Of a stretch of 64,000 nucleotides of DNA, positions 20,965-58,046 are shown piece after piece. Location of the stretch: NCBI GenBank assembly GCA_963806185.1, contig CAWDXE010000004.1:192001-256000 (forward strand), written 5' to 3'. The notes beneath the pieces are model-generated. The model made no database searches and was not told where the DNA came from. It was given only the letters and a program-made list of their open reading frames with translations. This DNA is from an uncultured candidate division Zixibacteria bacterium (GTDB taxonomy: Bacteria > Zixibacteria > MSB-5A5 > GN15 > FEB-12). A program made the translations under genes and the position numbers. How positions within the stretch are numbered: position 1 is the first letter of the stretch; each line of letters begins with the position of its first letter.

Positions 20965-22650
20965 CTAAGCCATAGCCGGTTCCTGAGCCGTGATCGGGGC
21001 GAGGGGGAAATCCACGGTAATGGTCGTGCCGCGCCCTTGTTCGGAATCGATGTGCAAGGCGCCGCCGTGGTTCTCGACAATGCGCTTGCAGACCACCAGG
21101 CCAAAACCGTGGCCTGATTTCTTGGTCGTAAACCGCTCCTGAAATGCCTTGGCCAGTACCTCCGGGGCGAACCCGCAGCCCGTATCCGAAATGGTGAACC
21201 GGAACCGCCCGGTTTCGTCGTCCCGGCGAATGGCGGCGGAAATACGCCGTTCCTGGCTGTCGAACGTCGCGTCCGCGGCATTATTGAAGAGATTGTAGAG
21301 TAACTGCTGAATCTGGGTCCCGTCGGAATCAAAAAGAATTTCCGGAAGCTCGGCCGGCACGTCGACCGTCACCCCACGGAACCGTTTCTGTGGCCGGAGG
21401 TACTCGATGACCTCCAGGAAGGTCTTGTCGAACGACATGACTTCTTTGGTTCCGGAAATGGGCGTGAGCGACATGAGGTCTGACGTAAAGCGTTCGATCT
21501 TCTTGATCGTGTCACCCATGGTTTGGACGTACTTCGGCAGACTCTGATAGTTTTCCTTTTTCAACTGCAAATCGAGCAGCGAGAGATTTCCCTGCACCAC
21601 GGCCAGGAAATTGTTCAACTCGTGGCCGATTTCTGCGGACATCACGCCGCGCGTCGCCATGGTCTCCAGTTGAATGGTCTCGTCCTGCAATTCCTTGAGC
21701 CGGGCATACGCCTCCTGTGTCTGGTGCAGGAGCGACAGGTTCTCCAGCGTGATGGCCAGCTGGGAGCCGGTAATGGACAGGAATTTCATGTCGGCGCTGC
21801 GCACTTTGACCGTATCATTGTGGAATCCGACCATGAGCATGCCGTAGAAGAAGTCCGGGCGATGCACGGGCACAACAATCATCGGTTCGTGGTCGCGTTT
21901 CCAGGCAGGGAAGAGCATCTCCTTAAGCTGGTTGTCAGGGTGCGCTTTGTACAGAGGGTGGTCACCGATCTGACTGACCAGAACCGGCTGATCGCAGGTC
22001 GCCCGAGTGCACTCATTAAGGAGTCCGGTCAGAGGCTCGCGGGGGATCTCAGTCTCTACAGTCTCTTCGCCGACGATGCTTATCATTTTAGTCTGACCGG
22101 AGTTGCGATTTCGATAAATCATGGCGCCTTGATCGGCGTGCTGGTGCATCATCGCAAACTTGAGTGATGACGTGATGACCGAATTGGCGTCGCCGGTGGA
22201 GAAAAGGACAGAGCTGAGATCGTTGAGCTTGGTCAGTTGTTCTTCGCCTCGCGCCGCCGCCGATTCCTGCTTCTTCTCGAGCGCGTTGCGGACCGCCTGG
22301 CGAATCTCGCTCAACTCGAACGGTTTCATGATATAGTCGAAAGCGCCCTGTTTGATGGCGTTTTTTGCGGAGTTGAGATTGGCGTAGCCGGTGATGAAGA
22401 TTACGGCGACTTCCGGCAGCATCTCCTTGGCCCGCCGCACGAGCTCGATTCCGTCCATGCCGGGCATACGGATGTCGGAAATAATCAGGTCAATGTTCTG
22501 TCGGGCGATAATTTCGAGTGCCTGTGTCCCCGTCTCGGCCGTGTGCACGACCATGCCCTCTTCTTCGAGCGTGTCTCGGACGAGCGAGACGACGATCGAC
22601 TCGTCGTCTACCACCAGAATCTGGCGGGTGATTTCCGACGCATCGTTCAT
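20965..22650 (-). CDS. Hybrid REC-GAF-histidine kinase
   Basis: ILVVDDE...SDIRMPGMDG...KPF; GAF-like middle region; GHELNNFL; NLFNNA, DTGCG, GHGFGL. Confidence 0.9.
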   Translation of the reverse strand: MNDASEITRQILVVDDESIVVSLVRDTLEEEGMVVHTAETGTQALEIIARQNIDLIISDIRMPGMDGIELVRRAKEMLPEVAVIFITGYANLNSAKNAIKQGAFDYIMKPFELSEIRQAVRNALEKKQESAAARGEEQLTKLNDLSSVLFSTGDANSVITSSLKFAMMHQHADQGAMIYRNRNSGQTKMISIVGEETVETEIPREPLTGLLNECTRATCDQPVLVSQIGDHPLYKAHPDNQLKEMLFPAWKRDHEPMIVVPVHRPDFFYGMLMVGFHNDTVKVRSADMKFLSITGSQLAITLENLSLLHQTQEAYARLKELQDETIQLETMATRGVMSAEIGHELNNFLAVVQGNLSLLDLQLKKENYQSLPKYVQTMGDTIKKIERFTSDLMSLTPISGTKEVMSFDKTFLEVIEYLRPQKRFRGVTVDVPAELPEILFDSDGTQIQQLLYNLFNNAADATFDSQERRISAAIRRDDETGRFRFTISDTGCGFAPEVLAKAFQERFTTKKSGHGFGLVVCKRIVENHGGALHIDSEQGRGTTITVDFPLAPITAQEPAMA

Positions 22651-23015
22651 GGCTGGTTTACAGGCGAAAGCACCGAATTTATGAGATTGCGCACCTGATT
22701 GAGATCAAAGGGCTTGCGCAAACACAGAAAATTGCTGGACGCGTGGATACGTTCCGATAGTTCGTCAGGCATGGAATCGGTGAAGATGAAACGGAGCTGC
22801 GGCTGGAGAGGATATACCTCGCAATACATCTGGTAGCCGTTCATCTTCGGCATATGCAGGTCGCAAAGGCATATGTCGAATGCCTCGGCCAGCGCAGCAT
22901 CCACACCGGCCTTGCCATTATTAGCCGTCACCACCTCATGGCCGGACTCGGTCAGGAATTCTTCCAGCAGGCCGCGCATCACCGGTGAATCGTCTACGAT
23001 TAGTATTCTTGCCAT
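22647..23015 (-). CDS. Single-domain response regulator
   Basis: ILIVDD, CDLHMP, KPF; 122 aa. Confidence 0.9.
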   Translation of the reverse strand: MARILIVDDSPVMRGLLEEFLTESGHEVVTANNGKAGVDAALAEAFDICLCDLHMPKMNGYQMYCEVYPLQPQLRFIFTDSMPDELSERIHASSNFLCLRKPFDLNQVRNLINSVLSPVNQP

Positions 23016-23018
23016 GTG

Positions 23019-23387
23019 CTATGCCTCCAACGCCCCGCTGACAGTCTGCATCAATTCTTTGATGCTGAAAGGTTTTGACAGGAACGCACAGGCTCCGTTG
23101 CTCACGGACTGACTCACCGTATAGAGGCTCGAATATCCGGAAATAATGATGACCTTGGTCTTAGGGGAGGATTGTTTGGCGAATTTCACCACTTCCTCAC
23201 CCGGGACCCGCGGCATACGCAGGTCAGTGATGACGAGATCATACGACCGTTCCTTCATCCTCTCGATCGCTTCGTCGCCGTCGGAGGCCACCGAAAGTTC
23301 GTATTCTTCAAGAACTTCGGAAAGGAAATCGCGAATGATCTCCTCATCGTCAACAATCAAAATGGAGTACTTGCTTTGTTCATTCAT
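23019..23387 (-). CDS. Single-domain response regulator
   Basis: ILIVDDE, TDLRMP, KPF; 122 aa. Confidence 0.9.
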   Translation of the reverse strand: MNEQSKYSILIVDDEEIIRDFLSEVLEEYELSVASDGDEAIERMKERSYDLVITDLRMPRVPGEEVVKFAKQSSPKTKVIIISGYSSLYTVSQSVSNGACAFLSKPFSIKELMQTVSGALEA

Positions 23388-23401: not shown

Positions 23402-25078
23402 TCAGGCTGTATGCGCCGCCCCAACCCCTACTTTCTTATCGGCGTCCGTCGTATATTTCTGCACCGGCAAAACGATGGTAAACGTCGTTCCGCGGCCAAC
23501 TGTAGACTGGACAGTGATTTCGCCGCCATGTTCCTTGATGATGCCGTAGCTCACCGAGAGACCAAGTCCGGTGCCCTTACCCACCTCTTTGGTGGTGAAA
23601 AACGGTTCAAAAATCTTTTTCAGGTTCTCGGACGGAATACCACAGCCGTTGTCGACGAATTGCAGTTCAATGGCGCCGCCAAACTCACCTAGGGCCGGGC
23701 TGAACCGGGTATGAATCCGCACGACCGCTCCGCTCTCGCAGGCGTGCATGGCGTTAATGAGCAGGTTCGTAAACACCTGTTGCAGCTGTCCGGCATTGCC
23801 TGAGATTTCAGGCAGGGTGGGCTCCAGGTGAGACTGCAGCTCGATCTGCTTCATATGGAATTGGTGCTGAACGAACGTGATCGTCTCTTCTACGATTTTA
23901 TTGATGTCAATGGTCGCGAAGTCCACTGCCTTGGAGGAGCGAGAGAAGCGCAGGAGATTCTGTACAATCGTCTTGCAGCGACGGGCCTGCGTTTCAATGT
24001 CGGTGACATACCGAATGTAGCTGTCCACTTCCTTGGTCGACGTCTTTTCCGGAACGTTCTTCTGCAGCTTTTCAAGAGTGAACTGGGCGTATCCGAGAAT
24101 GCCGCCCAATGGGTTGTTGAGCTCATGGGCCACGCCGGCCGCCAGCTGGCCGATGGCGCTCATTTTCTCCGATTGGATAAGCTGGGCCTGCGCATCCTCG
24201 AGCTGCTGCGTGCGCTCTATGATCTTCTGTTCGAGATTTCGATTGTACTGCTCAATCTCGTCCCGCGATTGTTTGAGTGAATCTATCATCTTATTGAAAG
24301 TCACGGCCAGGTGGCCGATCTCATCAAACTGCTCGATTTCCACGCGTTTGCTCAGATCGCCGTGACTTATCTGGTCGGTTACAGCGACCAGGGCCGTCAC
24401 CGGCCTGATAGCCGCATTGACCACCATCATGACGACTACCATCGTAATAATGAGGATGATGACAGTCAGGAAAATTGCCGCAGCCTGAGCGCCGGCCGCC
24501 AGCCGTCGAACGTTGCTCAGTGAAAAACCCATCTCAATTGAACCGATCACCTCGGTCTCGTTGCTGAGGGCGACAGAATTGTCCAGGCCGCCTGTGATGC
24601 CGAGGTGTTCGCGGTTTATGGTTTTCTTCTGCGTTGTGATGGGCGCGGAGAGCACAATGATCTCGTTGCCGGCGCTGTCACGTACCAATTCATGCGCGTG
24701 CTCGTCCGAACCGGTTCCGGAGATATCGTGACGGACAGTCTGTCGGTCGACGATGGAAACGGACCGTCCGGTGCGCGACAGGACCGTGCCCTCGTTGTTC
24801 TTGATGACGGCGTATTCAACCGTCTCAAACTGCGACAGGATCTTGAGCATATCATCCAGCTCATACGTTGATTCGAACAACACACCGCTCTCGGCGTTGA
24901 TAGCGAGCATCTTTATGATTGTCTCGCCGCGAATCTCCACTTCACGCATGATGCTGTCCGATTGCCGCTTGATGAGATAGCTCGAGATCGTGAGCATGCT
25001 CAGGCCGAGAATGAGCGAGATCGGCAGGACGAATTTTGTGCGCAGCTTGAGATGCGCCATGAAACGACTAAGTTTCAT
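23402..25078 (-). CDS. Membrane sensor histidine kinase (periplasmic domain, HAMP)
   Basis: Two TM helices, HAMP ([13 protein letters not shown]), [16 protein letters not shown]...GTGLGL. Confidence 0.95.
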
Positions 25079-26028
25079 CGGTACACCTCTTTGGCAACGG
25101 CGCTCAGTTCGGCCGGAATGGCCACATTGATATGCTTCGCAGTCTTCTCGTTATAATGGAACCAGATGATATCCGGACTCGTCACCGGAATCTCTCCCGG
25201 CTTGGTTCCGCCCAGTATTTTTACCGCGATTTCACCGGCTTGGCGGCCGATCGCCTTGTAGTCAAAGTCGAGGGCGAAAAGCGCGCCCGATTCGACGACA
25301 TGGCGAGAAAAGCCCATGAACGGCACGCCTTTGCGCATCGTGTTCAGTAAGATGTACTTCGTGGCCTGCGGATTAAAAAGGTTGGGGTCAGCCACCGACC
25401 AGATGCCATCCACCACAGTTGTCAGCGAGTCGAGCGCCTTCGGCAACTCGCGCTCATTGTCCACTCGCACTGCCACCAGCTTGAGGCCCATCTGCTGAGC
25501 CACAACCTGTGATGGGGGGATAAGTGACGCCGTGTTGCTCGTATACAGGACGCCGAGAATCTTCAAAGTTGGAAGGATCTGCTTGAAGTACTTAAACTGA
25601 ATATCGACGGGGATGGTCAGCGACGCGCCGGTGATATTTTCGCCCGGGTGATTGAGCGACTTTACGAATCCGCTGACTACCGGGTACATTACCGACGAGA
25701 AGACAATCGGCTGGTTGTTGAGTTGTCGCGTGGCGATTTCAGTCGCGCCGCTGCCGATCGTCACGATGATATCTGGTTTGGCCTGGCGCAATTCGGCGAT
25801 CTGACGTTGTTGTACGCCAGGATCCGGGTCCAGCTTTAGGTTTAGAAAGGTGGCGTCGGCGAATTCGTTGGTGATGATGCTTTTGGCGCCGCTGAGGGTT
25901 CGCGTAGTCGAGGTCAGGGTGTCGGTGGTGAGAAATGCAATGGAGCGCGCCTGGACACCAACGGAAGCGCCGGCGAGCGCCAGCGCCGCCACAAGAAGTC
26001 CCCTGATGGCCATTCCCCTTCGCGACAT
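25075..26028 (-). CDS. Periplasmic substrate-binding-like protein (ABC_sub_bind type)
   Basis: Signal peptide, PDIIVTIG, PGENITG, VESGAL, IGRQAG; overlaps the kinase start (ATGA); exact start uncertain. Confidence 0.85.
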   Translation of the reverse strand: MSRRGMAIRGLLVAALALAGASVGVQARSIAFLTTDTLTSTTRTLSGAKSIITNEFADATFLNLKLDPDPGVQQRQIAELRQAKPDIIVTIGSGATEIATRQLNNQPIVFSSVMYPVVSGFVKSLNHPGENITGASLTIPVDIQFKYFKQILPTLKILGVLYTSNTASLIPPSQVVAQQMGLKLVAVRVDNERELPKALDSLTTVVDGIWSVADPNLFNPQATKYILLNTMRKGVPFMGFSRHVVESGALFALDFDYKAIGRQAGEIAVKILGGTKPGEIPVTSPDIIWFHYNEKTAKHINVAIPAELSAVAKEVYR

Positions 26029-26120
26029 TTCAGAACGGTCCCGTAACAGCAAGCATTTGTACCACAGGAGCATGGAAGTGTTACCCCGCCCGGCGGGCAT
26101 CCGCACTCATACTCCCTCTG

Positions 26121-26147
26121 TTATCGGGTTATCCCGAAGAAACTTAA
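26121..26147 (-). promoter_or_regulatory. sigma28-like promoter for the SBP-kinase operon
   Basis: TTAAGTTT-N11-CCCGATAA. Confidence 0.65.
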
Positions 26148-26196: not shown

Positions 26197-26223
26197 TAAA
26201 GAAAATCCGGGGCAAGTCGATAT
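26197..26223 (+). promoter_or_regulatory. sigma28-like promoter for the TBDR operon
   Basis: TAAAGAAA-N11-GTCGATAT. Confidence 0.55.
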
Positions 26224-26310: not shown

Positions 26311-28980
26311 GTGAAGACAGAGTTAAACAAACTGGCAATCATCCTGACGGCCGTTCTATTGTGCATGCTGTCCGCATCGGCATGGGCGGAGGTCGCCGGG
26401 AAGATTTCGGGTACGGTGACGGATGTGAAAGGGGGCGATCCCCTCATCGGTGCCACCGTTCAAGTTATTGGCACTGACTATCGCACCAAGACCGACGAAG
26501 ACGGGGAATACTTCATTATTAATCTGCCGGTCGGTAAGTACGATATCGCCGTGACACACGTCGGCTTCGCATCGATCACCAAAAAGGAAGTGCGGGTCCT
26601 GGTCGATTTGACAACGCCGGTCGACTTCTCGTTGGCGGAGATGGCGGTCGAATTGAAAAACCAGGTCGTCGTGTATGCCTCGGCGCCGGTGATTCAGCGT
26701 GACCTTACGAGTTCAAAGGTCATATTTACCGCTGATCGTCTGAAGAATCTACCCAACATACAATCGGTGCAGTCGGTCCTCACCAATTATCCGGGCGTGG
26801 TTGTCGACCAGAATCTCGACTTGCACGTTCGCGGCGGCCGGTCGGGTCAGATTTCCTATTTCTATGACGGTTTTTCCGTGCAGGATCCGTTTGTGGCCGA
26901 CGCCGGTATCCGTATCATGCCAACCGCCCTGGAAGAACTATCTTTAACCTCAGGCGGTTTTACGGCCGAATACGGCGAAGCGATGTCGGGTGTTGTAAAC
27001 GCGGTCAGCCGCGAAGGCAACAATGATTATCATGGCGGCTTGAAAATGTTTGACGGCGCCACCCAGTCATATGACGTCACCACGGGGGACTGGACGGGTC
27101 TGAAACGAGTCGGGAATCGGTCGGTGAGTTTCAACGTCTCCGGCCCTGTTCCCGGATTCGCCGAGAAGCGGTTTACCTTCTTCTCCGCCGGCGAGTATTA
27201 CCGCAATATCAACTACTTGCCGCATGACTGGGCAATCATCTACACTGGAACGACCAAGCTGTCCTATCATGCGACCAATCGACTGAAACTTAAAGGCAAC
27301 TTCACCTATTCTCGTTCCAACGGTGCGACGTACAATCACCGCGACGTCAATGATGTTTCCTTCGATCTCAATCTTGACGGGCTGCCTATTAATAAGAAAG
27401 AAGCCTACCTCGGCGGCCTCTCCGGCACCTATGCATTTAGTGAGAGAATGGTCTGGTCGTTGCAGTATAATCGTTTCTCGACCTACACGAAGAGCGCTCC
27501 CGAGCCGCTCTTCGACACCTATTGGCGCAATTGGCCGGGATATTCCGAGGATAGCACGGGCGAATACAACGGCACTATCCACCGCCACAATTATCGCGAT
27601 CAGATGGATAATTCCGATCCGTACGAACTGGTCGGTTTTGCCAACGGTGACCGCATCGACCCGACCTATTCATACCGCAAGAGTGTGTATAATTCAGTGA
27701 CCAGCAATCTGGTCGGTCAATTGGGCAAAGCGCACCAGCTTAAGGCCGGGTTTGAATGGCGGAAGTACGATGTCAATCGCGACTTCAAGCAGTTCTACAA
27801 CTCGCGTCCGTACAGCGAATTTTACCACATAAAACCGCTGTACGTATCGACGTTTGTGCAGGATAAGATTGAATACGCCGACTTCGTGATCAATCTCGGT
27901 CTGCGCTATGACTATCGCGATCCGGACGCGACTTACAACACCACCCCCGGATCCAGGACACCGATATACAAGAAGGCCGACGCCAAGTCACGTTTCGCGC
28001 CGAGGCTGGGCGTTTCGTTCCCGATCTCGGTCAATTCGGTGATGCATTTCAACTACGGCATTTACTATCAGATGCCCATCTACAAGTATCTCTACTTCAA
28101 CCTTGATGGTGAAGTCAATTCCGGTTTCCCGTTGCTGGGCAACCCCGATCTGTCACCCGAACGGACCGCGTCATACGAATTGGGTCTCGATCACCTGTTT
28201 GGCGAGAACCTGCGGGCCGACGTGACCGCGTATTACAAGGACATAAGCGATCTGGTGTCGACTCGACCCGTGTTCAAGGTTGCCGGCAACGAAGTGACTC
28301 GCTTCATCAACGCCGACTACGGCTCGGTGGTCGGGTTTGACGTTGCTTTGGAACGACTGCCCAAGACCGGTTACCTGAGCGGTTCGTTGTCGTATGGCTT
28401 CATGATGGCGAGCGGCATCGGCTCATCGGCCATGGAACCGTACTACACCTACATCACGTCCACGGAGGATACCCTGGCACCGGTAAAAGAATATCCGCTT
28501 GATTTCGATCAGCGCCATACCTTGACGGCTGTCCTGGATTATCGCGTTCCGGCCGACTGGAAAGGCGATCTCTTCGGCCTGTCGCTCCCGAGTAACTGGG
28601 GACTCAACATGGTCGGGTACGTCGGCTCCGGACTGCCCTACTCCAAGACCGATAGCAAGGGGAACCGGGTCGGCGATCGCAACGCGTATCGCTTGCCAAC
28701 GTACATGAGCGTTGACGCTCGCTTCAATAAAGATTTCGTACTGCGGAACAATGGTTCGCTGCTTACCTACTTCATCGAAGTAGACAACCTCTTTGACCGC
28801 CGCAATGTCCTGTCGGTGTATCAGTTCACCGGCTTGACAGATGATGACGGCGTAGTGGTTGGGACCGGCCTGCAATTAAGCGAAACCGATCTGGAACGGG
28901 CCAACCGCTTGTACGATCATGATCCTCAGAACTATTCACCCCCGCGGACAATCCGAACCGGGATTGAACTGCACTTTTAA
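26311..28980 (+). CDS. TonB-dependent receptor with N-terminal carboxypeptidase-regulatory-like domain
   Basis: KISGTVTD...GATV, plug LHVRGGR...GGFTAEYG..SGVVN, GNPDLSPE, terminal PRTIRTGIELHF. Confidence 0.95.
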   Translation: MKTELNKLAIILTAVLLCMLSASAWAEVAGKISGTVTDVKGGDPLIGATVQVIGTDYRTKTDEDGEYFIINLPVGKYDIAVTHVGFASITKKEVRVLVDLTTPVDFSLAEMAVELKNQVVVYASAPVIQRDLTSSKVIFTADRLKNLPNIQSVQSVLTNYPGVVVDQNLDLHVRGGRSGQISYFYDGFSVQDPFVADAGIRIMPTALEELSLTSGGFTAEYGEAMSGVVNAVSREGNNDYHGGLKMFDGATQSYDVTTGDWTGLKRVGNRSVSFNVSGPVPGFAEKRFTFFSAGEYYRNINYLPHDWAIIYTGTTKLSYHATNRLKLKGNFTYSRSNGATYNHRDVNDVSFDLNLDGLPINKKEAYLGGLSGTYAFSERMVWSLQYNRFSTYTKSAPEPLFDTYWRNWPGYSEDSTGEYNGTIHRHNYRDQMDNSDPYELVGFANGDRIDPTYSYRKSVYNSVTSNLVGQLGKAHQLKAGFEWRKYDVNRDFKQFYNSRPYSEFYHIKPLYVSTFVQDKIEYADFVINLGLRYDYRDPDATYNTTPGSRTPIYKKADAKSRFAPRLGVSFPISVNSVMHFNYGIYYQMPIYKYLYFNLDGEVNSGFPLLGNPDLSPERTASYELGLDHLFGENLRADVTAYYKDISDLVSTRPVFKVAGNEVTRFINADYGSVVGFDVALERLPKTGYLSGSLSYGFMMASGIGSSAMEPYYTYITSTEDTLAPVKEYPLDFDQRHTLTAVLDYRVPADWKGDLFGLSLPSNWGLNMVGYVGSGLPYSKTDSKGNRVGDRNAYRLPTYMSVDARFNKDFVLRNNGSLLTYFIEVDNLFDRRNVLSVYQFTGLTDDDGVVVGTGLQLSETDLERANRLYDHDPQNYSPPRTIRTGIELHF

Positions 28981-28997
28981 GGTGGAACGGTAGCCCT

Positions 28998-31748
28998 ATG
29001 AAGCACTCGAACAAAACAGCCATTTTCATTGCCGCCCTCTCGGTGGTGGCCATACTGGCGGGCACCGTCTGGTCGCGACCTTATAACGAGCGGCCTCGCC
29101 GTGCACAGTCAATAGAAGGCGGCGGACCGCTGCCGATCCCATCGCCCATAACCGTGGATCAGGTGACGCACAACCTGGGCAATCTGGCCACGACGGTTGA
29201 TAACTGGGGGTATGTGGGCGGTTATGGCTATGCCAATCTGCCCTCCGGCGAATGGCCGCGGGGATCGGGTCACAATTACCTCGCTGAAATCAAGTATTGG
29301 ATGGGCGGCGTGACCCCGTCGGGCGACACGCTGGTGGCCAATTCCGATGACGATTTTGAAGCCCTGCCGTCGCTGATTTCCGGAGCGAGCGAAACACGAA
29401 TTCTCATGTCCAGCGATACGACTCGCTACTATGGCTATGACCCGAGCGACACCGTCGGTCTGGGGGCCGGCAGTCCGGCGCACGGCTGGCGTATCTGGAA
29501 CGGCGACTCCGCCGCGTGGGTGTACAACCGCGTCTACAGCGCCATTGATCATCAGTACTACGCCGGCGGGCCGGCCTCACTGCAGGAATCGCACTATCGC
29601 TTCGGTGACCAGGCGCTGGGGAATTCGCTGATGGGTCTCGAAATGACCCACACCGTGCTCGGCTGGAACTACTGCTACAACGACGACTTTCTTTTTGTGG
29701 TGCTTGAGATCACAAACAATTCTGCGGTCGATTATACGAACTTCGCCTTTGGCTTGTACATCGATATCGACGTTGGCGAAAACAAGGTGCCCGGCCAGAA
29801 CGGCAATCTGGGCGATATGGTGTCCTCCGATTCGTCCGAGAATCTGGCATGGATCTATGACGCCGACAATTTTGACGCCTATTGGCGGCAGACTGGTATT
29901 TTGGGGACCAAGTATCTCGAAACGCCGGACGGAATCGGTATGACAGCCTTGCGGACCGGCGACTGGGCACTTCTGCCCGACGAAGATGCCGGTCGGTTCG
30001 AGATGATCAACAGTACAGAATTCGACGGTTCGTTGCCGCCGACCGATCAGTATTACGTGCAGTGTACCCGAGGTATCAACCTCGAGGCCGGGAAGACCAT
30101 TCGCGTCGTCTATGCATTGATCGCAGGGAAGAACGAAGCCGACTTCCGGGCCAACGCCGCGCTGGCGCAGGAACTCTACAACAATCACTTCGTCGGTCCG
30201 CAGCCGCCGGTCACTCCGACCGTCCATGCCCGTGCCGGCGATCGTAAGGCATACGTCTATTGGAATGACACGGCCGAAGTGTCGATTGACCCGATGACTG
30301 GGTTGTCGGACTTCGCCGGATACAAACTATACCGCAGCGAGGACTTCGGCCTTACCTGGGGTTCGGTGGACGACAATAACGAGAATAACTGCCTGACCGT
30401 CGACTACTACCCCGTGACCGCCTATGCGGCGGCCAGCCCCGGTGACCCGATCGGTCACAGCTACATTGATACCAACCTCACCAACGGGGTGGAATACTGG
30501 TACTGTGTATCTGCTTATGATCTGGGCGTGAGCGGCGTGGTCGATCCCCTGCAGTCCGGATTTTCCGTTGCCGGCGGAGCGCCAAATGTCGTGTCGATAA
30601 CGCCGCGCACCGATCCGGCCGGCGCCTATACGGCTGCCGGAACGGTCGCCCATACCACGACGGGGAGCTCGCTGCCCTCCGATGGCAACGTGCTGCCAAT
30701 AGTATTTGATCAGTCAGCTATCACCGGCGACGAATACCAGGTCGTTTTTGATGAACAGCCGGATCAAACCTACTGGAGCCTGATCAATACGACTACCGGC
30801 GATACTGTCCTGGCCAACCAGTCGCGCTATGCCGGCGAGCCGGAATTATACAATATCGGTGAAGGCGTTCGCGTCGTGGTACGCAACGGCGACTATGCCC
30901 CGCGTGACGCCGCGCAGACCTCTTTCGCCAGCCCCGGTGACACAACCTTGAATCTGGGAGCGTTCTTCGGGCCGTCGATTGCCGCTTTATACGATAACGA
31001 CTCCTATACGTTCGGCGACGGCAAGTTCCGCGCGACGTATGAAGTACGTTATACCGGCGATACTACCTACGCTTTCTCAATCTGGGAAGCCCTTAACTGG
31101 GAAAGCGATCCGCATCCGCAGTATCGCCCGCTGGCGGCAGTTCCGTTCGAGGTGTGGAATGTAACGGAAAATCGTCGAGTCAATCTGATGGTCACGAAGA
31201 ACGAGGCGGCGATGGACGGCACCTGGGGACCCCAGAATTCGCTTATCATCGTCGATCTGCCGTACGACACAACGGCCGACGTCACCTCACTCGCCTTCCC
31301 GTACCTTTGCGGTTGGTGGTTCCGCTTTGATCTGGCGACATTCAATCCGTCGGTAGGAGACGTGTTCACGATCGACGGAGCGCCACTCAACGGCCCGACC
31401 GACGTTTTCGCTTTCCGTACTGATGGCGTCAGCGGTGCGTCGGCAACGGCTCAGCTTAGGAAGATTAAGGTCGTTCCTGACCCGTATTTTGCCCGGTATT
31501 CGTCCCGAGTGGAGACGGAAAACGGCGAAACAGTCCTGCAATTTGTGAATCTTCCCGACAAGTGCACGATTCGCATTTACACGCTGACCGGCGATCTGGT
31601 CAATACGATTGAGAAGAATGACTTTGGTGGAACGGCGGAATGGAACCTGCTTTCCAGTGATCAACGGCAGATTTCTTCCGGCATATACATTTACCACGTT
31701 GACTCACCGTACGGGGAACGCCTCGGACGGTTTGCGGTGATCAAGTAG
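28998..31748 (+). CDS. Large secreted protein with FN3-like segment and T9SS-type C-terminal sorting domain
   Basis: Signal peptide; GYKLYRS...YIDTNLTNGVEYWYCVSAYD; tail IKVVPDPY...IRIYTLTG...SGIYIYHV...GRFAVIK. Confidence 0.8.
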   Translation: MKHSNKTAIFIAALSVVAILAGTVWSRPYNERPRRAQSIEGGGPLPIPSPITVDQVTHNLGNLATTVDNWGYVGGYGYANLPSGEWPRGSGHNYLAEIKYWMGGVTPSGDTLVANSDDDFEALPSLISGASETRILMSSDTTRYYGYDPSDTVGLGAGSPAHGWRIWNGDSAAWVYNRVYSAIDHQYYAGGPASLQESHYRFGDQALGNSLMGLEMTHTVLGWNYCYNDDFLFVVLEITNNSAVDYTNFAFGLYIDIDVGENKVPGQNGNLGDMVSSDSSENLAWIYDADNFDAYWRQTGILGTKYLETPDGIGMTALRTGDWALLPDEDAGRFEMINSTEFDGSLPPTDQYYVQCTRGINLEAGKTIRVVYALIAGKNEADFRANAALAQELYNNHFVGPQPPVTPTVHARAGDRKAYVYWNDTAEVSIDPMTGLSDFAGYKLYRSEDFGLTWGSVDDNNENNCLTVDYYPVTAYAAASPGDPIGHSYIDTNLTNGVEYWYCVSAYDLGVSGVVDPLQSGFSVAGGAPNVVSITPRTDPAGAYTAAGTVAHTTTGSSLPSDGNVLPIVFDQSAITGDEYQVVFDEQPDQTYWSLINTTTGDTVLANQSRYAGEPELYNIGEGVRVVVRNGDYAPRDAAQTSFASPGDTTLNLGAFFGPSIAALYDNDSYTFGDGKFRATYEVRYTGDTTYAFSIWEALNWESDPHPQYRPLAAVPFEVWNVTENRRVNLMVTKNEAAMDGTWGPQNSLIIVDLPYDTTADVTSLAFPYLCGWWFRFDLATFNPSVGDVFTIDGAPLNGPTDVFAFRTDGVSGASATAQLRKIKVVPDPYFARYSSRVETENGETVLQFVNLPDKCTIRIYTLTGDLVNTIEKNDFGGTAEWNLLSSDQRQISSGIYIYHVDSPYGERLGRFAVIK

Positions 31749-31754
31749 AGGAGA

Positions 31755-32732
31755 GTGGCGATGAGAACGGCTGCATTAATCATTTGTTGTCTGTTGCTGG
31801 CGACCGCCCTTTCCGCTCAGCAGAGCACCGTCGGAGCCGCCGGCGCGCAGTTCCTCAAGATCGGCGTTGGATCGAAATACCAGGCGATGGGGGAAGCCTC
31901 AGTCGCCGTGGCGGATGACATCTATTCGATGTACTGGAACCCGGCCGGTTTGGCCGCTATTGAAAACGGTCAGATCAGCTTCACCAACGTCAATTATGTA
32001 CTCGATATCGACTTGAACTGGGTGGGATACGCCAAGAACTTTGAAAACGTCGGCGTTTTCGGCGTCTCCGCCACCGTGCTGTCGATGGGTGAGCAGGAGA
32101 TTACCAATATCGATAATCAGGATGGTACGGGGCAGAGCTACTCGGCGTCTTCGTACGCTCTGGGTGTCTCCTTTGCCCGCCAGTTGACCGCCAAATTCGC
32201 CTTCGGCGCCACAATCAAGTATGTGTCTGAGAAGATCCATCTGGAAAAGGCGGACGGCGTGGCGATCGACATGGGGACGATGCTCAATACGGGGTACCGG
32301 AATCTTCGTTTGGGCATGAGCATCACGAACATGGGCGCCGACATGAAGTTCGATGGTCCGGATCTGAGCGTTCCGAGCTCCAGTCCTGAGACGAAGTACG
32401 ACGTAGCGTCGTACAATCTTCCCCTGACGTTCCGCGTCGGACTGGCCTACGACGTCGACTTCGGCCCAAAATCACTGCTGACCGTGTCGGGCGAGTTGAA
32501 GCATCCGAATGACAATGACCAGAAAGGCTCGCTGGGGCTGCAATACGGTTTCGATCAGAAGTTCTTCCTGCGCGGCGGGTATAAGATTAACTATGACGAG
32601 GAAACGCTGGCCCTGGGCGGCGGCCTGTCGACTACCGTGTCCGGGCAGACCCGGCTGGTGATTGATTACTCGTGGCAGGATTTTGGACGGTTGGAGACGA
32701 CCCAACGGTTTTCGGTCGGCTTCACCTTCTGA
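31755..32732 (+). CDS. PorV/PorQ-family beta-barrel
   Basis: AQFLKIGVG...AMGEA...YWNPAGL, LPLTFRVG, terminal F. Confidence 0.9.
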   Translation: MAMRTAALIICCLLLATALSAQQSTVGAAGAQFLKIGVGSKYQAMGEASVAVADDIYSMYWNPAGLAAIENGQISFTNVNYVLDIDLNWVGYAKNFENVGVFGVSATVLSMGEQEITNIDNQDGTGQSYSASSYALGVSFARQLTAKFAFGATIKYVSEKIHLEKADGVAIDMGTMLNTGYRNLRLGMSITNMGADMKFDGPDLSVPSSSPETKYDVASYNLPLTFRVGLAYDVDFGPKSLLTVSGELKHPNDNDQKGSLGLQYGFDQKFFLRGGYKINYDEETLALGGGLSTTVSGQTRLVIDYSWQDFGRLETTQRFSVGFTF

Positions 32733-32753
32733 GAGGCAGATATCGAATCAGGT

Positions 32754-32780
32754 AAAAGCCCCCTTGCGGGGCTTTTTTTT
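32754..32780 (+). terminator. Intrinsic terminator closing the TBDR-cargo-PorV operon
   Basis: AAAAGCCCC-loop-GGGGCTTTT followed by a T-run. Confidence 0.85.
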
Positions 32781-32863
32781 GACTGCGTCTGGACAGGGGC
32801 GACGAATGTACTATATTGGAAAGTCTGGAAAATCCCCTTCCGGGGCATACCGTGGAGAGCATC

Positions 32864-34447
32864 ATGCGTTTTTCTAATCGGTTGGCGTTCATCCTGTTAT
32901 TGGGCGCCTTTGGACTGGTTGGTTCGAGTTGGGCGGATGACGACACATCAGTCGACATGTTACGCCAGTATTTTGACTACCTGGCCACAGGCAACGTGGA
33001 ATCGGCTCAGCTCATGTGGACTGAATCGGCCCAGGAAAGATCTGCGCGGTTCGGTATCGAATACGACGGCATTATGGTCAGATCGGATGCAGCCTCACCG
33101 GTAATTCAAAATTTCGATGTCATGAGAAACTTCCTGGAGCCTCCGGTTCGTCAAATGGAGGCGATGCCGGGAGATACCTTTCAGCGTCTCACCTTTAGTG
33201 CCATCGTAGGCAGCGAATCGATCAAGTACACGTACTATGCCAAGCGGGATCAGCGCTGGTTCTGGCTCAGCTTTCCACAGGACTACTGGACCCGGGACTG
33301 GCCGGTACAGGAGTCAAAGTACCTTCGCATCCATGTTCACCCGCGCGTTAAAGAATTTCTCAGCCCCGCCCTCTTGAACGAGGTGGATCGGTTCGTCGCC
33401 GCCATGGCCGACACACTCAAACTGCCCAAGGCGTCACTGGCGGAAATCGCTGCCAGGAAGATCGAGTGGTATTACTGTGATGGCGACCAGACCGTGGAGG
33501 AAATCACCGGGTTCAAAACGAAGGGAATGCTGGACCTCGGATCAAATTCCATCATCAGTTCTACTTTTCCGCACTACCATGAGCTCGTGCATCTACTGGT
33601 TAATATTCGACTGAAGAAGATTCCGCTCCATACTCTGCCGCTGCTTCGAGAGGGCATCGCCGTGCGGTACGGCGGGCGCTGGGGCAAAAGTCTATCGGCG
33701 CTCTCCGATCTTGGGGCCTACCTCTATAAAGAGAAGCTGGTGGAGCTTGATTCGATACTCGTCGACAAGGGGTATGAAGCAGCGCAGGATGCGGACATCA
33801 TTTATCCGGTGGCCGGCATCTTCTCTTCGTTCCTGTTGGACAGGATCGGCATCGAAGGATACCTCACCGGGTATCGTAGTCTCTCGGGCTCTGGCGCTCA
33901 GCTGCGCGCCCTCAAGCCGGATTCCATCAAGAAAGCCTTGGCGACCATGGGTGGATTTGCCGATTGGAATGGGCTGGTAACCGGGTTTGACGCTTACCTA
34001 GCCAAGGCCTCCGGAACCTATGCGGTGGCCGCACCTGGCCGAGTGGCCGACGGCAAGTTGTTGCTCGCCGGGGACGGGTACTCTATCGTGCAATCAAAAG
34101 ACTGGCTTGGCTTTGAGTTCTCGCTGGCTGATACCGTCACTCCCCATGGGACACTTCTCTTTGCACCGCTTCCTGCCCCCGGGTCTATGGTGTCGTCGCT
34201 ATTTGTAGAACACTTCAGTGATGTTTATCCCTACGAGGGGTATAGATACGGCGTTCGCTATGATCAAAACGAAGCCGGCCTGTACGATTACGTGACCAAT
34301 CAATTGATTGCCAAGTACATTTGGGGGATTACGCCGTCGGACGATTACTATTCCAAGGGGAGTCGGACGGTGGCGATCAAATTCAAGAAAGTGCTGCTGG
34401 GCAAAGACCTGCCGGTCAAAGGGCAAGTGAAATTACTGCCAATGTAG
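32864..34447 (+). CDS. Secreted gluzincin/peptidase MA-like protein
   Basis: Signal peptide; HELVH followed by LREGIA. Confidence 0.6.
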   Translation: MRFSNRLAFILLLGAFGLVGSSWADDDTSVDMLRQYFDYLATGNVESAQLMWTESAQERSARFGIEYDGIMVRSDAASPVIQNFDVMRNFLEPPVRQMEAMPGDTFQRLTFSAIVGSESIKYTYYAKRDQRWFWLSFPQDYWTRDWPVQESKYLRIHVHPRVKEFLSPALLNEVDRFVAAMADTLKLPKASLAEIAARKIEWYYCDGDQTVEEITGFKTKGMLDLGSNSIISSTFPHYHELVHLLVNIRLKKIPLHTLPLLREGIAVRYGGRWGKSLSALSDLGAYLYKEKLVELDSILVDKGYEAAQDADIIYPVAGIFSSFLLDRIGIEGYLTGYRSLSGSGAQLRALKPDSIKKALATMGGFADWNGLVTGFDAYLAKASGTYAVAAPGRVADGKLLLAGDGYSIVQSKDWLGFEFSLADTVTPHGTLLFAPLPAPGSMVSSLFVEHFSDVYPYEGYRYGVRYDQNEAGLYDYVTNQLIAKYIWGITPSDDYYSKGSRTVAIKFKKVLLGKDLPVKGQVKLLPM

Positions 34448-54118: not shown

Positions 54119-57100
54119 TTGAATTTGCGCCCGCTAACCGAGACCGAAAGTTGTCGACTGCCGAAGTCAAAGAGCTTCTCTTTGGCTGCTATGGCCCTTT
54201 CTTTGTTTGGGCCGTTTTTCGTTTTGCCCCTTCTCACTGTTTCTGTAATTGGCGCTACAAACGACCTGGCGGTCCTCACCTCCAATTCAACCAGCTTTGC
54301 ATTCACCGTCTCCGTTCCCGGCGATCTCTCCAATTTACAGCGACTTACCGGTGCCGATTCATCCATCACTTTCACCAAGACGGTGCTCGTTGGAATTCCG
54401 ACCGGTGGCTCCGCGAGAGTCGTTCGGTCCGAAGGGTACGACGCGGTTCCCGTGACTGACTTGACTGACCACCTTGCCCCCACCGCACAACTTGTTCAAC
54501 TGGCAGCGCCCACCACGGTTCGCGGTCGCCAGTATGTGGCGGTTTCCATCAACCCGATCGTGGGATCGCAAGTGTATCGCCGCGTGGTAGTCGAACTCGC
54601 CTTCGCGGGCGGACTGAGCAGCGGCGCTGCCACCGACGATCCGGTCTTTGATCGCATCTTTAGCCGGTCGATCGCCAACTATGATCAATTTGCCAGATGG
54701 CCGTCGATGCCGCTTTGACATCCCGCCGACCACATCGTTGGCGGAAATATCCGATCCGTTTGCGTCCGGCAACCCCTGGTGGAAAATGTCTGTCCGGCAA
54801 ACCGGACTCTACCGCCTTACCGGATCACAACTGCAGACCGCCGGCATTCCGCTTGGGACATCGTCGGCTGCCATTCGGATATTCAATGGCGGCGGCCTCA
54901 TGAACGAGCCGGACAACTATCGCCCCCGCCCCGAATTCAAAGAAATCGCTCTGAACATCTCCGACGGTGGTGACGGTGCGATTGACGCCGCCGATTATGT
55001 GGAATTCTACGGTGAAAGCGTCGATCGGTGGGTCTTCCCTGAGCATGCCGAACCGTATTACGCCGACAACGTGTATACGACCGACAACGTCTACTGGCTT
55101 ACCATTACCGACGATTTCGGTAATCCGCCGACCCGCATGGCCGTGACGACCGTAACTTCCGGCGGCGCGGTGGACACGACCATTTCGACCTATCGTCGAC
55201 TCCTTCATACCGAACAGGATCATCTCATTTCCGAGGATTTTGACGCATTCGTTCGCGACTACTTCGAATGGTTCTGGACCGACCAGACATCGTTTTCATT
55301 AAACGTTTCGACGCCGAATCTGGTGATCGGCGATTCCACGTGGATCAACGTGGCGGCCAACACGGCGGGCATCGGTTCGACCATCGGCTTCACCAACTTG
55401 CTGGTCAACAACCAATCGGCAGTGGGTAAGTCGTGCACGCGCACCGGCTGCACGTACTTCGCCAACAATTTCGCGATTGGCAGTAACCTGCTCGCAATGA
55501 CCATGACGCCGTTAAATACCGCCGAGGGCGTTCCACCGTACCTCAACTACGTCGAGGTCGGATATCTCAGCCGCCTGGCGCCGGTGGGTAATGAGCTCGA
55601 CTTCGCACTCGACAGCATGCTGCGCATGGCGTCAATTCAGATCACCAATTCGTTCGGCCAGACTCCCGTGATCCTCGATCTGGCCGACACGCGTCGCCCT
55701 ACCCTGGTGACCGGCTGGACCAGTCAGAGCGGCCAGCTTTCATTCGACTGGAACCTGAGCAGCCACCCGGTGAATCGATTTTACGCGGTTTCCAGTCGCC
55801 TTTCCGTGGCCAATGCAGATTTTAAAAGAGTCATCCCCACCGACCTTCGCGCTGCCGCCGGTCAGACCGACCTGATTATTGTCACCCAGCCGCAGTTCAC
55901 CTCGGCTTTAAATAGTTATGTCGCCTACCGCCAGCAAGGCGGCTATACAATCCGTATGGCACTGGTGGGCGATATCATGGATAATTTCTCGTACGGTCTG
56001 TACGATCCGACGGCGATTCGCGACTTCCTCAAATTCACCTACGAACAGTATCCGTCGCCGGCGCCGTCAGGCGTGCTGTTTGTCGGCGACGGCAATTACG
56101 ACTTTCAGAATATCCTTGGGCAGGGCCAGACCAATTATGTGCCGCCGTATATCCGAACCGCCGACGAAACCTCCAGCGACGACAATTACGTGTATTTCGG
56201 TGAATTCGGCATTCTGGACGGCGACACCAGCTATGCCGGTGATCGCGGCTATGACATGATGACGGCACGCTGGCCGGTCAAATCGACCGCGGAGATACAG
56301 ACGATTATTGGCAAGATCAGATCGTACGAGTCGGCATCGACCCTGGGAAGCTGGCGCAATCGAATCGTTCTCGTGGCCGATGACGAGTATCGTGGCTCGT
56401 ATGCCGGTGAGAGTTTCCACACAACGCAGACGGAATTTCTCGAGAAAAACTATATCCCCAAGCATTTCGTACGCAATAAAATCTACGCCTGGGACTACCC
56501 CTTTGTGAATCGCGAGAAGCCGGCGGTCAACGACGCCATCGTGAATGCCGTCAATAACGGCGCGCTCATCGTAAACTATGTCGGGCACGGCAATCCCGAA
56601 CTCTGGGCGCACGAATCGATCTTCCGCCGTTCGTCCGATCTGCCCCGACTCCACAATGCCGATCGACTGCCGTTGTTTTTCGCCGCGTCGTGCGATATCA
56701 GCTTGTTCGACGATCCGGAACGTCAGTCCATGGGCGAAGACCTCTTTCTCGCCTCAAACGATGGCGCCATCGGTGTGGTCTCAGCCAATCGCATAGTGTA
56801 TTCGCAGGACAATGCCGATTTCAATCGGGAAGTCTTCGGCGTGCTATTGGACAACACCGACCTGACTATGTGCGAAGCGATTTACGCCGCCAAGCTGCAG
56901 CGTCAATATCCCGGACCGATTCGACAGACCAACGACCAGAAGTTCGTATTCTTTGGTGACCCCCTGCTCAAACTGGCGCAGCCGCAGCTCCGTGCGGAAT
57001 TTACCCAACGGCCCGACACTCTCGTCGGTCTGGCGCCGGTACACGTGTCAGGACAGATTGTCGACGGTGATGGAAATCCGGTCCCGGTTGACGGCCAGTT

Positions 57101-58046
57101 ACAGATACTCGCTTTCGACAGCGATCGAAACAAGACGCACACCCTGTACAGCACCACGCCGCCACTTACGATTCCCTACAAGATGACCGGCCCGCAGATC
57201 TTCCGCGGCCCGGCTAACGTCGTCAGTGGATTGTTCGACTTCAGCTTCGTCACGCCTCTCGACATCACTTATGGCGGCAACGACGCTCAAATCGTGATCT
57301 ATGCCATCCTCGACTCGACTGACGCGGTCGGGCTGATTGACACCATTCAGGTCGCCACGACTATCTCGACGGCGGTTGACTCAGTCGCTCCGGCCATCAG
57401 TTTCTACCGATCGGACAGTCCGACCCCGATTACCTCCGGGTCAGTCACTGTCGGGGATACCATTCGAATCGCAATTTCGGACCTTTCCGGAATCAATTTG
57501 ACCGGCTCCCTGGGGCACGGCATCTCGGCTGAGATTGACGGGGAACTGGATATGAACGCCAATTTGACCGATAACTTTGAATATACGGTCGGGGACTTTT
57601 CGACCGGCGAAGTTCAATATTCGCTGGCCGGGCTGACGGCCGGGCGGCATGAAATCAAGATTAAGGCGTGGGATAATGCCAACAACTCGTCGTCGTCGGT
57701 TTTTTCCGCCAATATCACCGACCAGACAGCCGGGTCGCTGGCCAATGTGCTGAATTATCCCAATCCTATGATGGAGCAGACTACGTTCTATTTCGACCTC
57801 AACGCGCCGGTGCAGCGATTTACCCTCGACATTTTTACCCTCGCCGGGCGCAAGATTCGCAGTTTCAGCGGTGCCGACCTGCCCGCAGCGAGCTATCCCA
57901 ACGCCTCCTTCAGGGCGGAGTGGGACGGTACCGACCTCGCCGGCGACCGGGTCGCCAGTGGCGTCTATATCTATCGAGCGGTCGCCGAGCCTCAGGCTGG
58001 GGGCGAACCGGTCGAGTCCTTTGGAAAAGTTGTTGTTATTAACTAA
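54119..58046 (+). CDS. porU: T9SS sortase PorU (C25 peptidase), split into 54119-54718 and a +1-frame ORF ending at 58046
   Basis: ORF1 has the signal peptide and a propeptide-like region. ORF2 has WWKMSVRQTGLYRL, DPTAIRDFLK, catalytic VNYVGHG and AASC, FFGDP, IKAWDNANNSS and a CTD (NYPNP...SGVYIYR). Confidence 0.85.

Follow-up and report, generated by a model that had tools for sequence, protein, structure and literature searches.

A three-gene unit on a Zixibacteria contig

We analysed a stretch of 64,000 nucleotides (the window; contig CAWDXE010000004.1, positions 192,001 to 256,000) from an uncultured Zixibacteria bacterium (assembly GCA_963806185.1). The source genome is 3.6 Mb in size and 82% complete, the window lies on its contig C4, and frameshifts affect a number of genes in other parts of the assembly. 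Homologues that carry a name are for the most part zixibacterial. The subject of this work is a triad of plus-strand open reading frames (ORFs) that encode a TonB-dependent receptor, a secreted protein with a type IX secretion system (T9SS) kind of tail, hereafter the cargo, and a barrel of the PorV/PorQ family. Protein lengths are given in amino acids (aa).

26311..28980, plus strand: TonB-dependent receptor, 889 aa (Pfam, structure model, Foldseek, conservation)
28998..31748, plus strand: cargo, an unnamed secreted all-beta protein, 916 aa, with signal peptide, supersandwich, fibronectin-III-like domain, further beta domains and T9SS-type tail
31755..32732, plus strand: barrel of the PorV/PorQ family, 325 aa, receptor-linked subgroup (NF033709, alignment with F. 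johnsoniae PorV, tree)
32754..32785, plus strand: intrinsic terminator-like hairpin (9 pairs) followed by a T run

The gaps of 17 and 6 bp between the genes and the terminator behind them agree with the initial annotation, which was made from the letters alone; terminator-like sites over the whole region number 5 against 7.9 expected, i.e. they are not above chance.

Conservation of the triad

Matches to the cargo at E 3.4e-165 or better were taken as orthologues, the remaining genomes reaching 1e-76 at best. A full-length orthologue is present in 114 of 150 genomes of the phylum, distributed over nine families; it is near-core and 38-60% conserved. Synteny was assessed in 97 of the 114 orthologous loci (those left out include split loci and loci near contig ends). 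The receptor gene lies directly upstream of the cargo gene in all 97, and a PorV-family gene follows in 96, the sole miss being at a contig end. Twenty-three paralogous or divergent loci gave the same picture, with the receptor upstream in every one and the barrel downstream in 22; here, too, the missing case lies at the end of a contig. Among 80 GTDB loci, from genomes that partly overlap with these, the receptor was found in 75/75 and the barrel in 73/73 cases where room allowed. When the search started from the barrel, a gene with the variant tail described below lay directly upstream in all 66 metagenome loci with room (14 of the 80 had none). The triad of the initial annotation is therefore kept in both directions, and it recurs as paralogues: a second, frameshifted triad lies in the same genome (C5:243030-250269). 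Among the divergent triads, locus L143 (genome G090) has a short cargo of 615 aa, and in locus L148 (G113) the cargo ORF stops early in the tail.

Sigma-28-type promoter motifs

The upstream regions of orthologous loci share two motifs on opposite strands, which lie in the window at:

26197..26223, plus strand: sigma-28 (FliA)-type motif TAAAGAAA-N11-GTCGATAT, before the triad
26121..26147, minus strand: second sigma-28-type motif TTAAGTTT-N11-CCCGATAA, facing a sensory operon

The candidate promoter annotated before the triad thus has a counterpart of another class, as a sigma-70 scan found none before gene 1 and the conserved sigma-28-type motif stands there. A position matrix seeded with the E. 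coli sigma-28 boxes, and trained on these loci, scored 116 of 122 upstream regions, the same ones used in training, above the best shuffle. A fixed pattern composed after the k-mers had been seen (TAAAG-type and CCGATA-type boxes, 11-base spacer) occurs in forward orientation in 93 and in reverse in 71 of the 122 regions, compared to 0-3 in 20 shuffles, 1/121 downstream regions and 0/121 coding stretches. In upstream regions of tRNA genes a sigma-70 pattern was found in 30/47 and the sigma-28 pattern in 0/47, and we rejected the motif as a housekeeping promoter on this ground. A sigma-54 pattern was found in 0-1 of the 122 regions.

Genome-wide, 25 sites reach a score of at least 18 (4 do so in one shuffle), and the divergent site ranks first and that of the triad ninth, with a matrix derived from triad loci. 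A flagellar cluster of the genome ends with fliA, and the flagellin gene carries the motif upstream. Among eighteen ORFs chosen downstream of sites with high scores are those of CheW, GGDEF, receiver, FHA, YfiR, hemerythrin, M23, Lon and topoisomerase. In its boxes, its spacer and the presence of FliA in the genome the motif fits a sigma-28 promoter, and its use as such is predicted. FliA exceeds the cut-off in 40 of 42 chosen genomes, and flagellin was not found in 26 of 151. With the factor kept where no flagellin was found and the motif placed before lon, topA and T9SS cargo genes, the FliA regulon would be broad and perhaps developmental.

In five loci of family f2 (L120, L123, L125, L126, L127) the gene behind the barrel is short (260-300 aa) and flagellin-like. 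The genome studied here also has a short flagellin-like gene, at C3:291889-292653, in addition to a flagellin of 733 aa.

A linked sensory gene cluster

The second motif faces a cluster that is head-to-head with the receptor gene:

25075..26106, minus strand: periplasmic binding protein (PF04392), true start probably further in, with no permease or ATPase of the ATP-binding cassette type adjoining
23402..25078, minus strand: membrane HAMP histidine kinase
23019..23387, minus strand: single-domain receiver
22647..23015, minus strand: single-domain receiver
20965..22650, minus strand: receiver-kinase hybrid

The binding protein gene adjoins the triad in divergent orientation in 87 of the 97 loci. 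Two loci have no room for it, and the remaining eight, all of family f16, have a receiver-kinase gene upstream instead. Seven of these eight do encode the binding protein on that contig and strand, at a distance of about 7-8 kb upstream of the cargo gene; there the sensory cluster is flipped, not lost. Among 42 chosen genomes, which include kin and are not independent, a strong binding-protein orthologue (E 2.3e-60 or better) was found in 18/18 with a cargo orthologue and in 0/24 without one. Seven of the latter 24 hold a binding-protein paralogue of roughly 31%. ORF and Pfam annotation of the window's cluster revealed no hydrolase or permease gene.

Beyond the triad terminator, the window encodes a secreted 543-aa protein with an HELVH motif (32816-34447) that has no match in Pfam and NCBIfam searches, is present in 59/97 loci and is preceded by a sigma-70-like site at 32790.

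Because the triad is kept together across most Zixibacteria, behind a sigma-28 motif and beside a sensor-kinase cluster, we tentatively read it as a surface capture-and-sense machine whose cargo would be held by the barrel through an uncleaved tail, and put the probability of this at about 0.45. It is on account of the sigma-28 motifs, and of the linked cluster of binding protein and kinases, that we favour sensing over a polysaccharide-utilisation locus.

Receptor, cargo and the case for nutrient uptake

The receptor matches the Pfam carboxypeptidase-regulatory-like N-domain, plug and TonB barrel, the last two over cut-off. It comprises an N-terminal extension (residues 32-120), a TonB-box-like strand (119-123), the plug (129-228) and the barrel (about 241-889). 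The structure model has a predicted local distance difference test (pLDDT) score of 87, and Foldseek matches include PqqU and FhuA. V121 and A123 of the strand are kept in 125 of 126 sequences, and V121-x-A123 follows the TonB box pattern. TonB itself is present in the genome, with 13 TonB_C matches. By plug, barrel and TonB-box-like strand the product of gene 1 is classed as a TonB-dependent receptor, for which ligand uptake is a prediction. It scores 64.7 bits against the SusC/RagA model TIGR04056, whose cut-off is 368, and no SusC chain appears among the Foldseek matches listed, although the two may yet be kin.

The cargo has no Pfam family match. Its N-terminus is a hydrophobic helix, a signal peptide without a cysteine, and a lipobox-like pattern occurs in only 2 of 125 orthologues, in line with the annotated absence of a lipobox. 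The model, built from an alignment of 119 sequences (pLDDT 86.9), is nearly all beta. Two of its domains are central here:

29154..30188, plus strand: beta-supersandwich (residues 53-397) with no helical catalytic barrel behind it; invariant D256, D258 and D273
31455..31745, plus strand: variant type-A-like C-terminal domain (residues 820-916), with a fold match to PorZ

The supersandwich aligns with glucoamylase 1lf6 (Z 21.1, root-mean-square deviation 2.7, 230 residues aligned) and resembles the N-terminal domain of glucoamylase and of glycoside hydrolase (GH) families GH94 and GH116. In GH15, GH94 and GH116 enzymes a helical catalytic barrel follows the supersandwich. Such an enzyme identity was rejected, as the model has no helical domain and the matches are to the sandwich; a different catalytic site is possible. 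The lack of a recognisable enzyme domain, noted at first annotation, is borne out by both Pfam and the model. The three aspartates are invariant in 27 orthologues and paralogues and might, as a guess, form a calcium site. Residues about 402-537 are fibronectin-III-like, with a weak titin match and Foldseek matches to receptors that have such domains. A sequence search of solved structures with the cargo gave weak titin and PorZ matches and nothing else.

Matches of the cargo to T9SS tail models (residues 817-904) are weak, and we call the tail variant because its TIGR04183 score of 19.4 bits lies below the cut-off of 23. In structure it aligns with PorZ 5m11 (Z 13.0, root-mean-square deviation 1.7, 93 residues aligned, 29% identity). 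Its sequence, VVPDPY...GRFAVIK (most orthologues have N in place of the D of VVPDPY), was originally contrasted with the tails of PorU (54648-58046) and of the M6-like protein, and both of these do end in YPNP-type tails. With a signal peptide and a C-terminal immunoglobulin-like tail, the cargo would qualify as a type A-like secreted protein of the T9SS. A type B tail is not indicated: the cargo has no match to PF13585 and the barrel none to PorP/SprF. With a profile from a 27-sequence cargo alignment, E values up to 1e-30 were obtained for 5,211 protein clusters; so wide a family is yet without a Pfam entry. A taxon was named for four clusters among the 20 matches looked up (Ignavibacteriota, Marinimicrobia, Calditrichaceae and Caldithrix abyssi).

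The initial annotation proposed a SusCD-like lid and receptor pair. The conservation of the triad, the separate barrel subgroup described below, the tail-binding loops that this barrel retains, the tail-barrel covariation at one of them and the lack of SusD speak in part for this proposal, which had missed the sigma-28 motifs and the linked binding protein and kinase cluster. In its present form it would mean nutrient uptake, with the barrel-held cargo replacing SusD as the lid of the receptor and the kinase cluster being just a co-regulated neighbour. SusD (PF07980) was not found in the 82% complete genome by a search in which the control rang. The supersandwich fold is typical of carbohydrate-active proteins, the N-terminal extension of the receptor is SusC-like, and in a sister module (below) the partner of these receptor and barrel families is a lipoprotein. 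The cluster, however, has neither hydrolases nor an inner-membrane transporter, the binding protein co-occurs strictly with the cargo, and the receptor falls far under the SusC cut-off. Utilisation loci are patchy in distribution, unlike the near-core orthologue. We regard uptake as a serious but unlikely explanation.

The PorV-like barrel and a private-shuttle alternative

The barrel scores 206 bits against the PorV/PorQ family NF033709 (cut-off 90). It stays below the equivalog cut-offs of PorV (85 of 250 bits) and PorQ (92.5 of 220), and its score with the BamG model is 19 bits, against a cut-off of 250. The genome has 10 PorV-family matches over cut-off. One of them follows porU, as had been annotated, so a second PorV exists there but is one of ten instead of two. 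This porU-linked PorV (58065-60653) is 862 aa long, as about 500 extra residues separate its first barrel match from the later ones, and porU itself is apparently split near its start into overlapping frames (54119-54718 and 54648-58046), probably by an assembly frameshift.

A quick tree of 48 barrels has a branch (support 95) that sets the receptor-linked ones, 40 in number, all together and away from the porU-linked PorV. Receptor-linked barrels may thus form their own subgroup; we take the tree as suggestive because the other eight barrels are long branches. In an alignment with F. johnsoniae PorV, residues 83-84 and 110-130 of the barrel fall on the loops that hold N87 and F115, which are described as binding the tail and contacting its conserved lysine (PMC10994853).

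Nine orphan paralogues of the cargo carry a related tail (55-76 bits, compared to 133 and 117 for the two triad cargos). They are about 840 aa long, with supersandwich and variant tail; one is frameshifted and some are in tandem. Their sites are:

C4:436601-444697, C6:22033, C6:128712, C7:493584-498694, C8:74342 and C1:851734: orphan paralogues

The variant tail is therefore not private to the triad. The idea of a private PorV holds as far as the grouping of the barrels apart from the porU-linked PorV is concerned, and fails in that the tail class is shared with the nine orphans.

The barrel could instead be a private secretion shuttle for a tail subtype, after which the cargo would be cleaved, or would reside apart, with no receptor contact in spite of the common operon. 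Orphan paralogues are in keeping with this, as are other tail-bearing genes in the genome that precede PorV-family genes without a receptor, and type B tails have cognate shuttle genes directly downstream according to PMC12618676. A shuttle would not account for a receptor upstream in every triad locus with room, or for the grouping of receptor-linked barrels that includes lipoprotein-associated ones with no tail-bearing neighbour. We consider this account improbable.

A sister module with a lipoprotein partner

The same genome encodes a related module:

C7:424675-431270: TonB receptor, followed by a barrel of the PorV family and an unnamed lipoprotein of 731 aa

The 731-aa protein has a lipoprotein-type signal and no recognised tail. 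The receptor and barrel are related to those of the triad, and both are frameshifted in the source assembly. The lipoprotein has matches in 59 of 60 phylum genomes. In the best 25 sister loci, all of one family and our own included, the barrel lies upstream in 25/25 and the receptor end in 23/25, the flank being short in two. Since the sister module pairs the same families with a lipoprotein, receptor and barrel are, by gene content, the constant part and the surface partner varies.

This arrangement recalls BamG, described in PMC12578637 as a homologue of FadL/PorV to which both BamA and a surface protein are bound. By analogy, the barrel might dock on the receptor within a structural or adhesive complex with an interchangeable surface subunit, import being secondary. 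The persistence of receptor and barrel with either partner type would suit such a complex, and so would the correlation of receptor and barrel distances, the highest of all at 0.92. These mirror-tree distances are uninformative as all parts correlate: the expected co-phylogeny of tail and PorV gave r 0.72 over the whole domain against this 0.92, no better than background. The plug and the TonB-box-like strand are conserved, as for an energised transporter, receptor-barrel covariation in 126 triads has no outstanding pair (top z 6.3), and the barrel falls far short of the BamG model. We hold out little hope for this explanation, too.

A wider proposal is doubtful, if somewhat less so than an uptake system. 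The PorV-like barrel clade may be a general adaptor that docks either a tailed T9SS cargo or a lipoprotein onto a TonB receptor, with one zixibacterial copy having become a near-core, FliA-controlled surface-to-kinase sensing chain that marks a motile or developmental stage.

Other PorV-family genes follow tail-bearing genes. At C1:709946-722261 and C7:500995-508614 a large tail-bearing protein precedes a PorV-family barrel with a long C-terminal extension that looks repeat-like by eye. Behind both lie genes resembling a phosphatase and partner-switching set, and signalling across the envelope through PorV is possible there. The C1 locus also has a sigma-28-type site. At C4:81886-86438 a tail-bearing protein of 886 aa, not matched by the PorZ model, is followed by two tandem PorV-family genes.

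Proposed mechanism

The capture-and-sense reading starts from direct observations, namely gene order, family identity, conservation, promoter motifs and the linkage of the sensory cluster. From known T9SS biology, the cargo would be exported by Sec and pass through SprA, and its tail would be bound by PorV-type loops. The genome encodes translocon and sortase, with SprA over cut-off and PorU at 654 bits. The cognate barrel would then retain the tail, much as PorQ keeps PorZ. Beside the receptor, the enzyme-less supersandwich may bind a carbohydrate-like ligand, which would reach the periplasm via the receptor and signal through binding protein, kinase and receivers within a sigma-28 (motile or dispersal) programme.

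For the contact between tail and barrel, the strongest cargo-barrel covariation in 126 triads joins tail residues 838 and 834 to barrel residue 119 (z 7.9 and 7.7), which falls within the F115-type tail-gripping loop. Both pairs stay on top in 167 pairs (z 8.1 and 7.9), where V or I accompanies 76 of the 84 tails that bear a tryptophan motif and F accompanies 61 of the 83 others; this covariation comes down to 3 to 4 independent pairs, a number with which sign tests cannot reach significance.

That small number weighs against our reading, as do several further points. The pair in the window itself (V838, I119) is an exception to the rule, and between receptor and cargo no pair stands out by its covariation (top z 6.5, 126 triads). 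None of the nine orphan paralogues is directly adjoined by a barrel or receptor gene, the nearest barrel being 5.4 kb away. The linkage to the kinase cluster could stem from a shared promoter region and common descent. Searches for gldM gave 0/1 in our genome and 0/20 in phylum genomes, with no control that rang, and gldK gave 0/1, likewise with no good positive control (gldL and gldN were not searched), so that the T9SS here is possibly one without the known motor. The sigma-28 pattern was found in only 5 of 23 paralogous triads, and sigma-28 regulation and sensing are therefore not general to the family. Finally, triad and motif are kept in 11/11 loci from two orthologue-bearing families without a flagellin match. 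Because module and motif persist where no flagellin was found, the triad is not a flagellar part. Conversely, no full-length cargo orthologue was found in 21 flagellin-bearing genomes (families f7, f9, f13, f14, f15 and f19), and a flagellar component was rejected on both grounds.

Every part of the unit is of a known kind, and it is the combination of gene families that appears new. A literature search covering mostly open-access papers, supplements excluded, found no published description of such a unit and no described envelope biology of Zixibacteria. If true, our reading would give relatives of the Fibrobacterota-Chlorobiota-Bacteroidota (FCB) group that have no SusD a different route to a complex for capture at the surface. 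The pairing of tails with cognate barrels would, moreover, reach further than before, to tails of the type-A-like kind and to PorV-family barrels. Testable handles on the timing and the signalling target of the unit are provided by the sigma-28 motif and by the kinase linked to it.

Comparison with known systems

SusC/SusD pairs (RagA/RagB) likewise consist of a TonB receptor with an N-terminal extension followed by the gene of a large surface partner. The triad differs in a receptor below the SusC cut-off, in a partner that is all beta, has a secretion tail and is no lipoprotein, in the extra barrel, and in a cluster without hydrolases.

T9SSs may occur in other FCB phyla, according to a passage of PMC11285876 that does not name Zixibacteria. 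With the PorQ-PorZ and PorV-PorU pairs, as presented in PMC10202324, the triad shares a PorV-family barrel, a type-A-like tail and the tail-binding loops. It stands apart from them outside the sortase complex, with a supersandwich cargo and a barrel that is under the equivalog cut-offs and always encoded behind a TonB receptor. Cases in which a cognate barrel keeps hold of a tail that stays uncleaved have been established or proposed (PMC10202324, PMC12618676). In type B systems with PorP/SprF, according to PMC12618676, the shuttle gene also lies directly downstream of the cargo gene, orphan cargos exist, and where the cargo ends up is believed to depend on the pairing, while type A tails all use one PorV. 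Here the barrel is of the PorV family, the tail is type-A-like, and the partner is a TonB receptor instead of PorE or a gliding track.

The BamA-BamG-BamH complex of Bacteroidota has a FadL/PorV-like barrel as platform for a surface protein beside a larger barrel (PMC12578637), and the sister module likewise has a lipoprotein. In our case the large barrel is a TonB receptor, the BamG model is not matched and any contact is hypothetical.

The motifs, in turn, have the promoter shape and 11-base spacing described for E. coli FliA sites (PMC4183435), and top-scoring sites lie before CheW, GGDEF and receiver genes. Unlike in those regulons, what the motif precedes here is a unit of T9SS and TonB parts, and genomes that lack a flagellin match still retain the sigma factor. 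Bdellovibrio FliA, proposed as a global regulator of the attack phase in PMC3627812, provides by analogy a precedent for such a stage-wide role of sigma-28.

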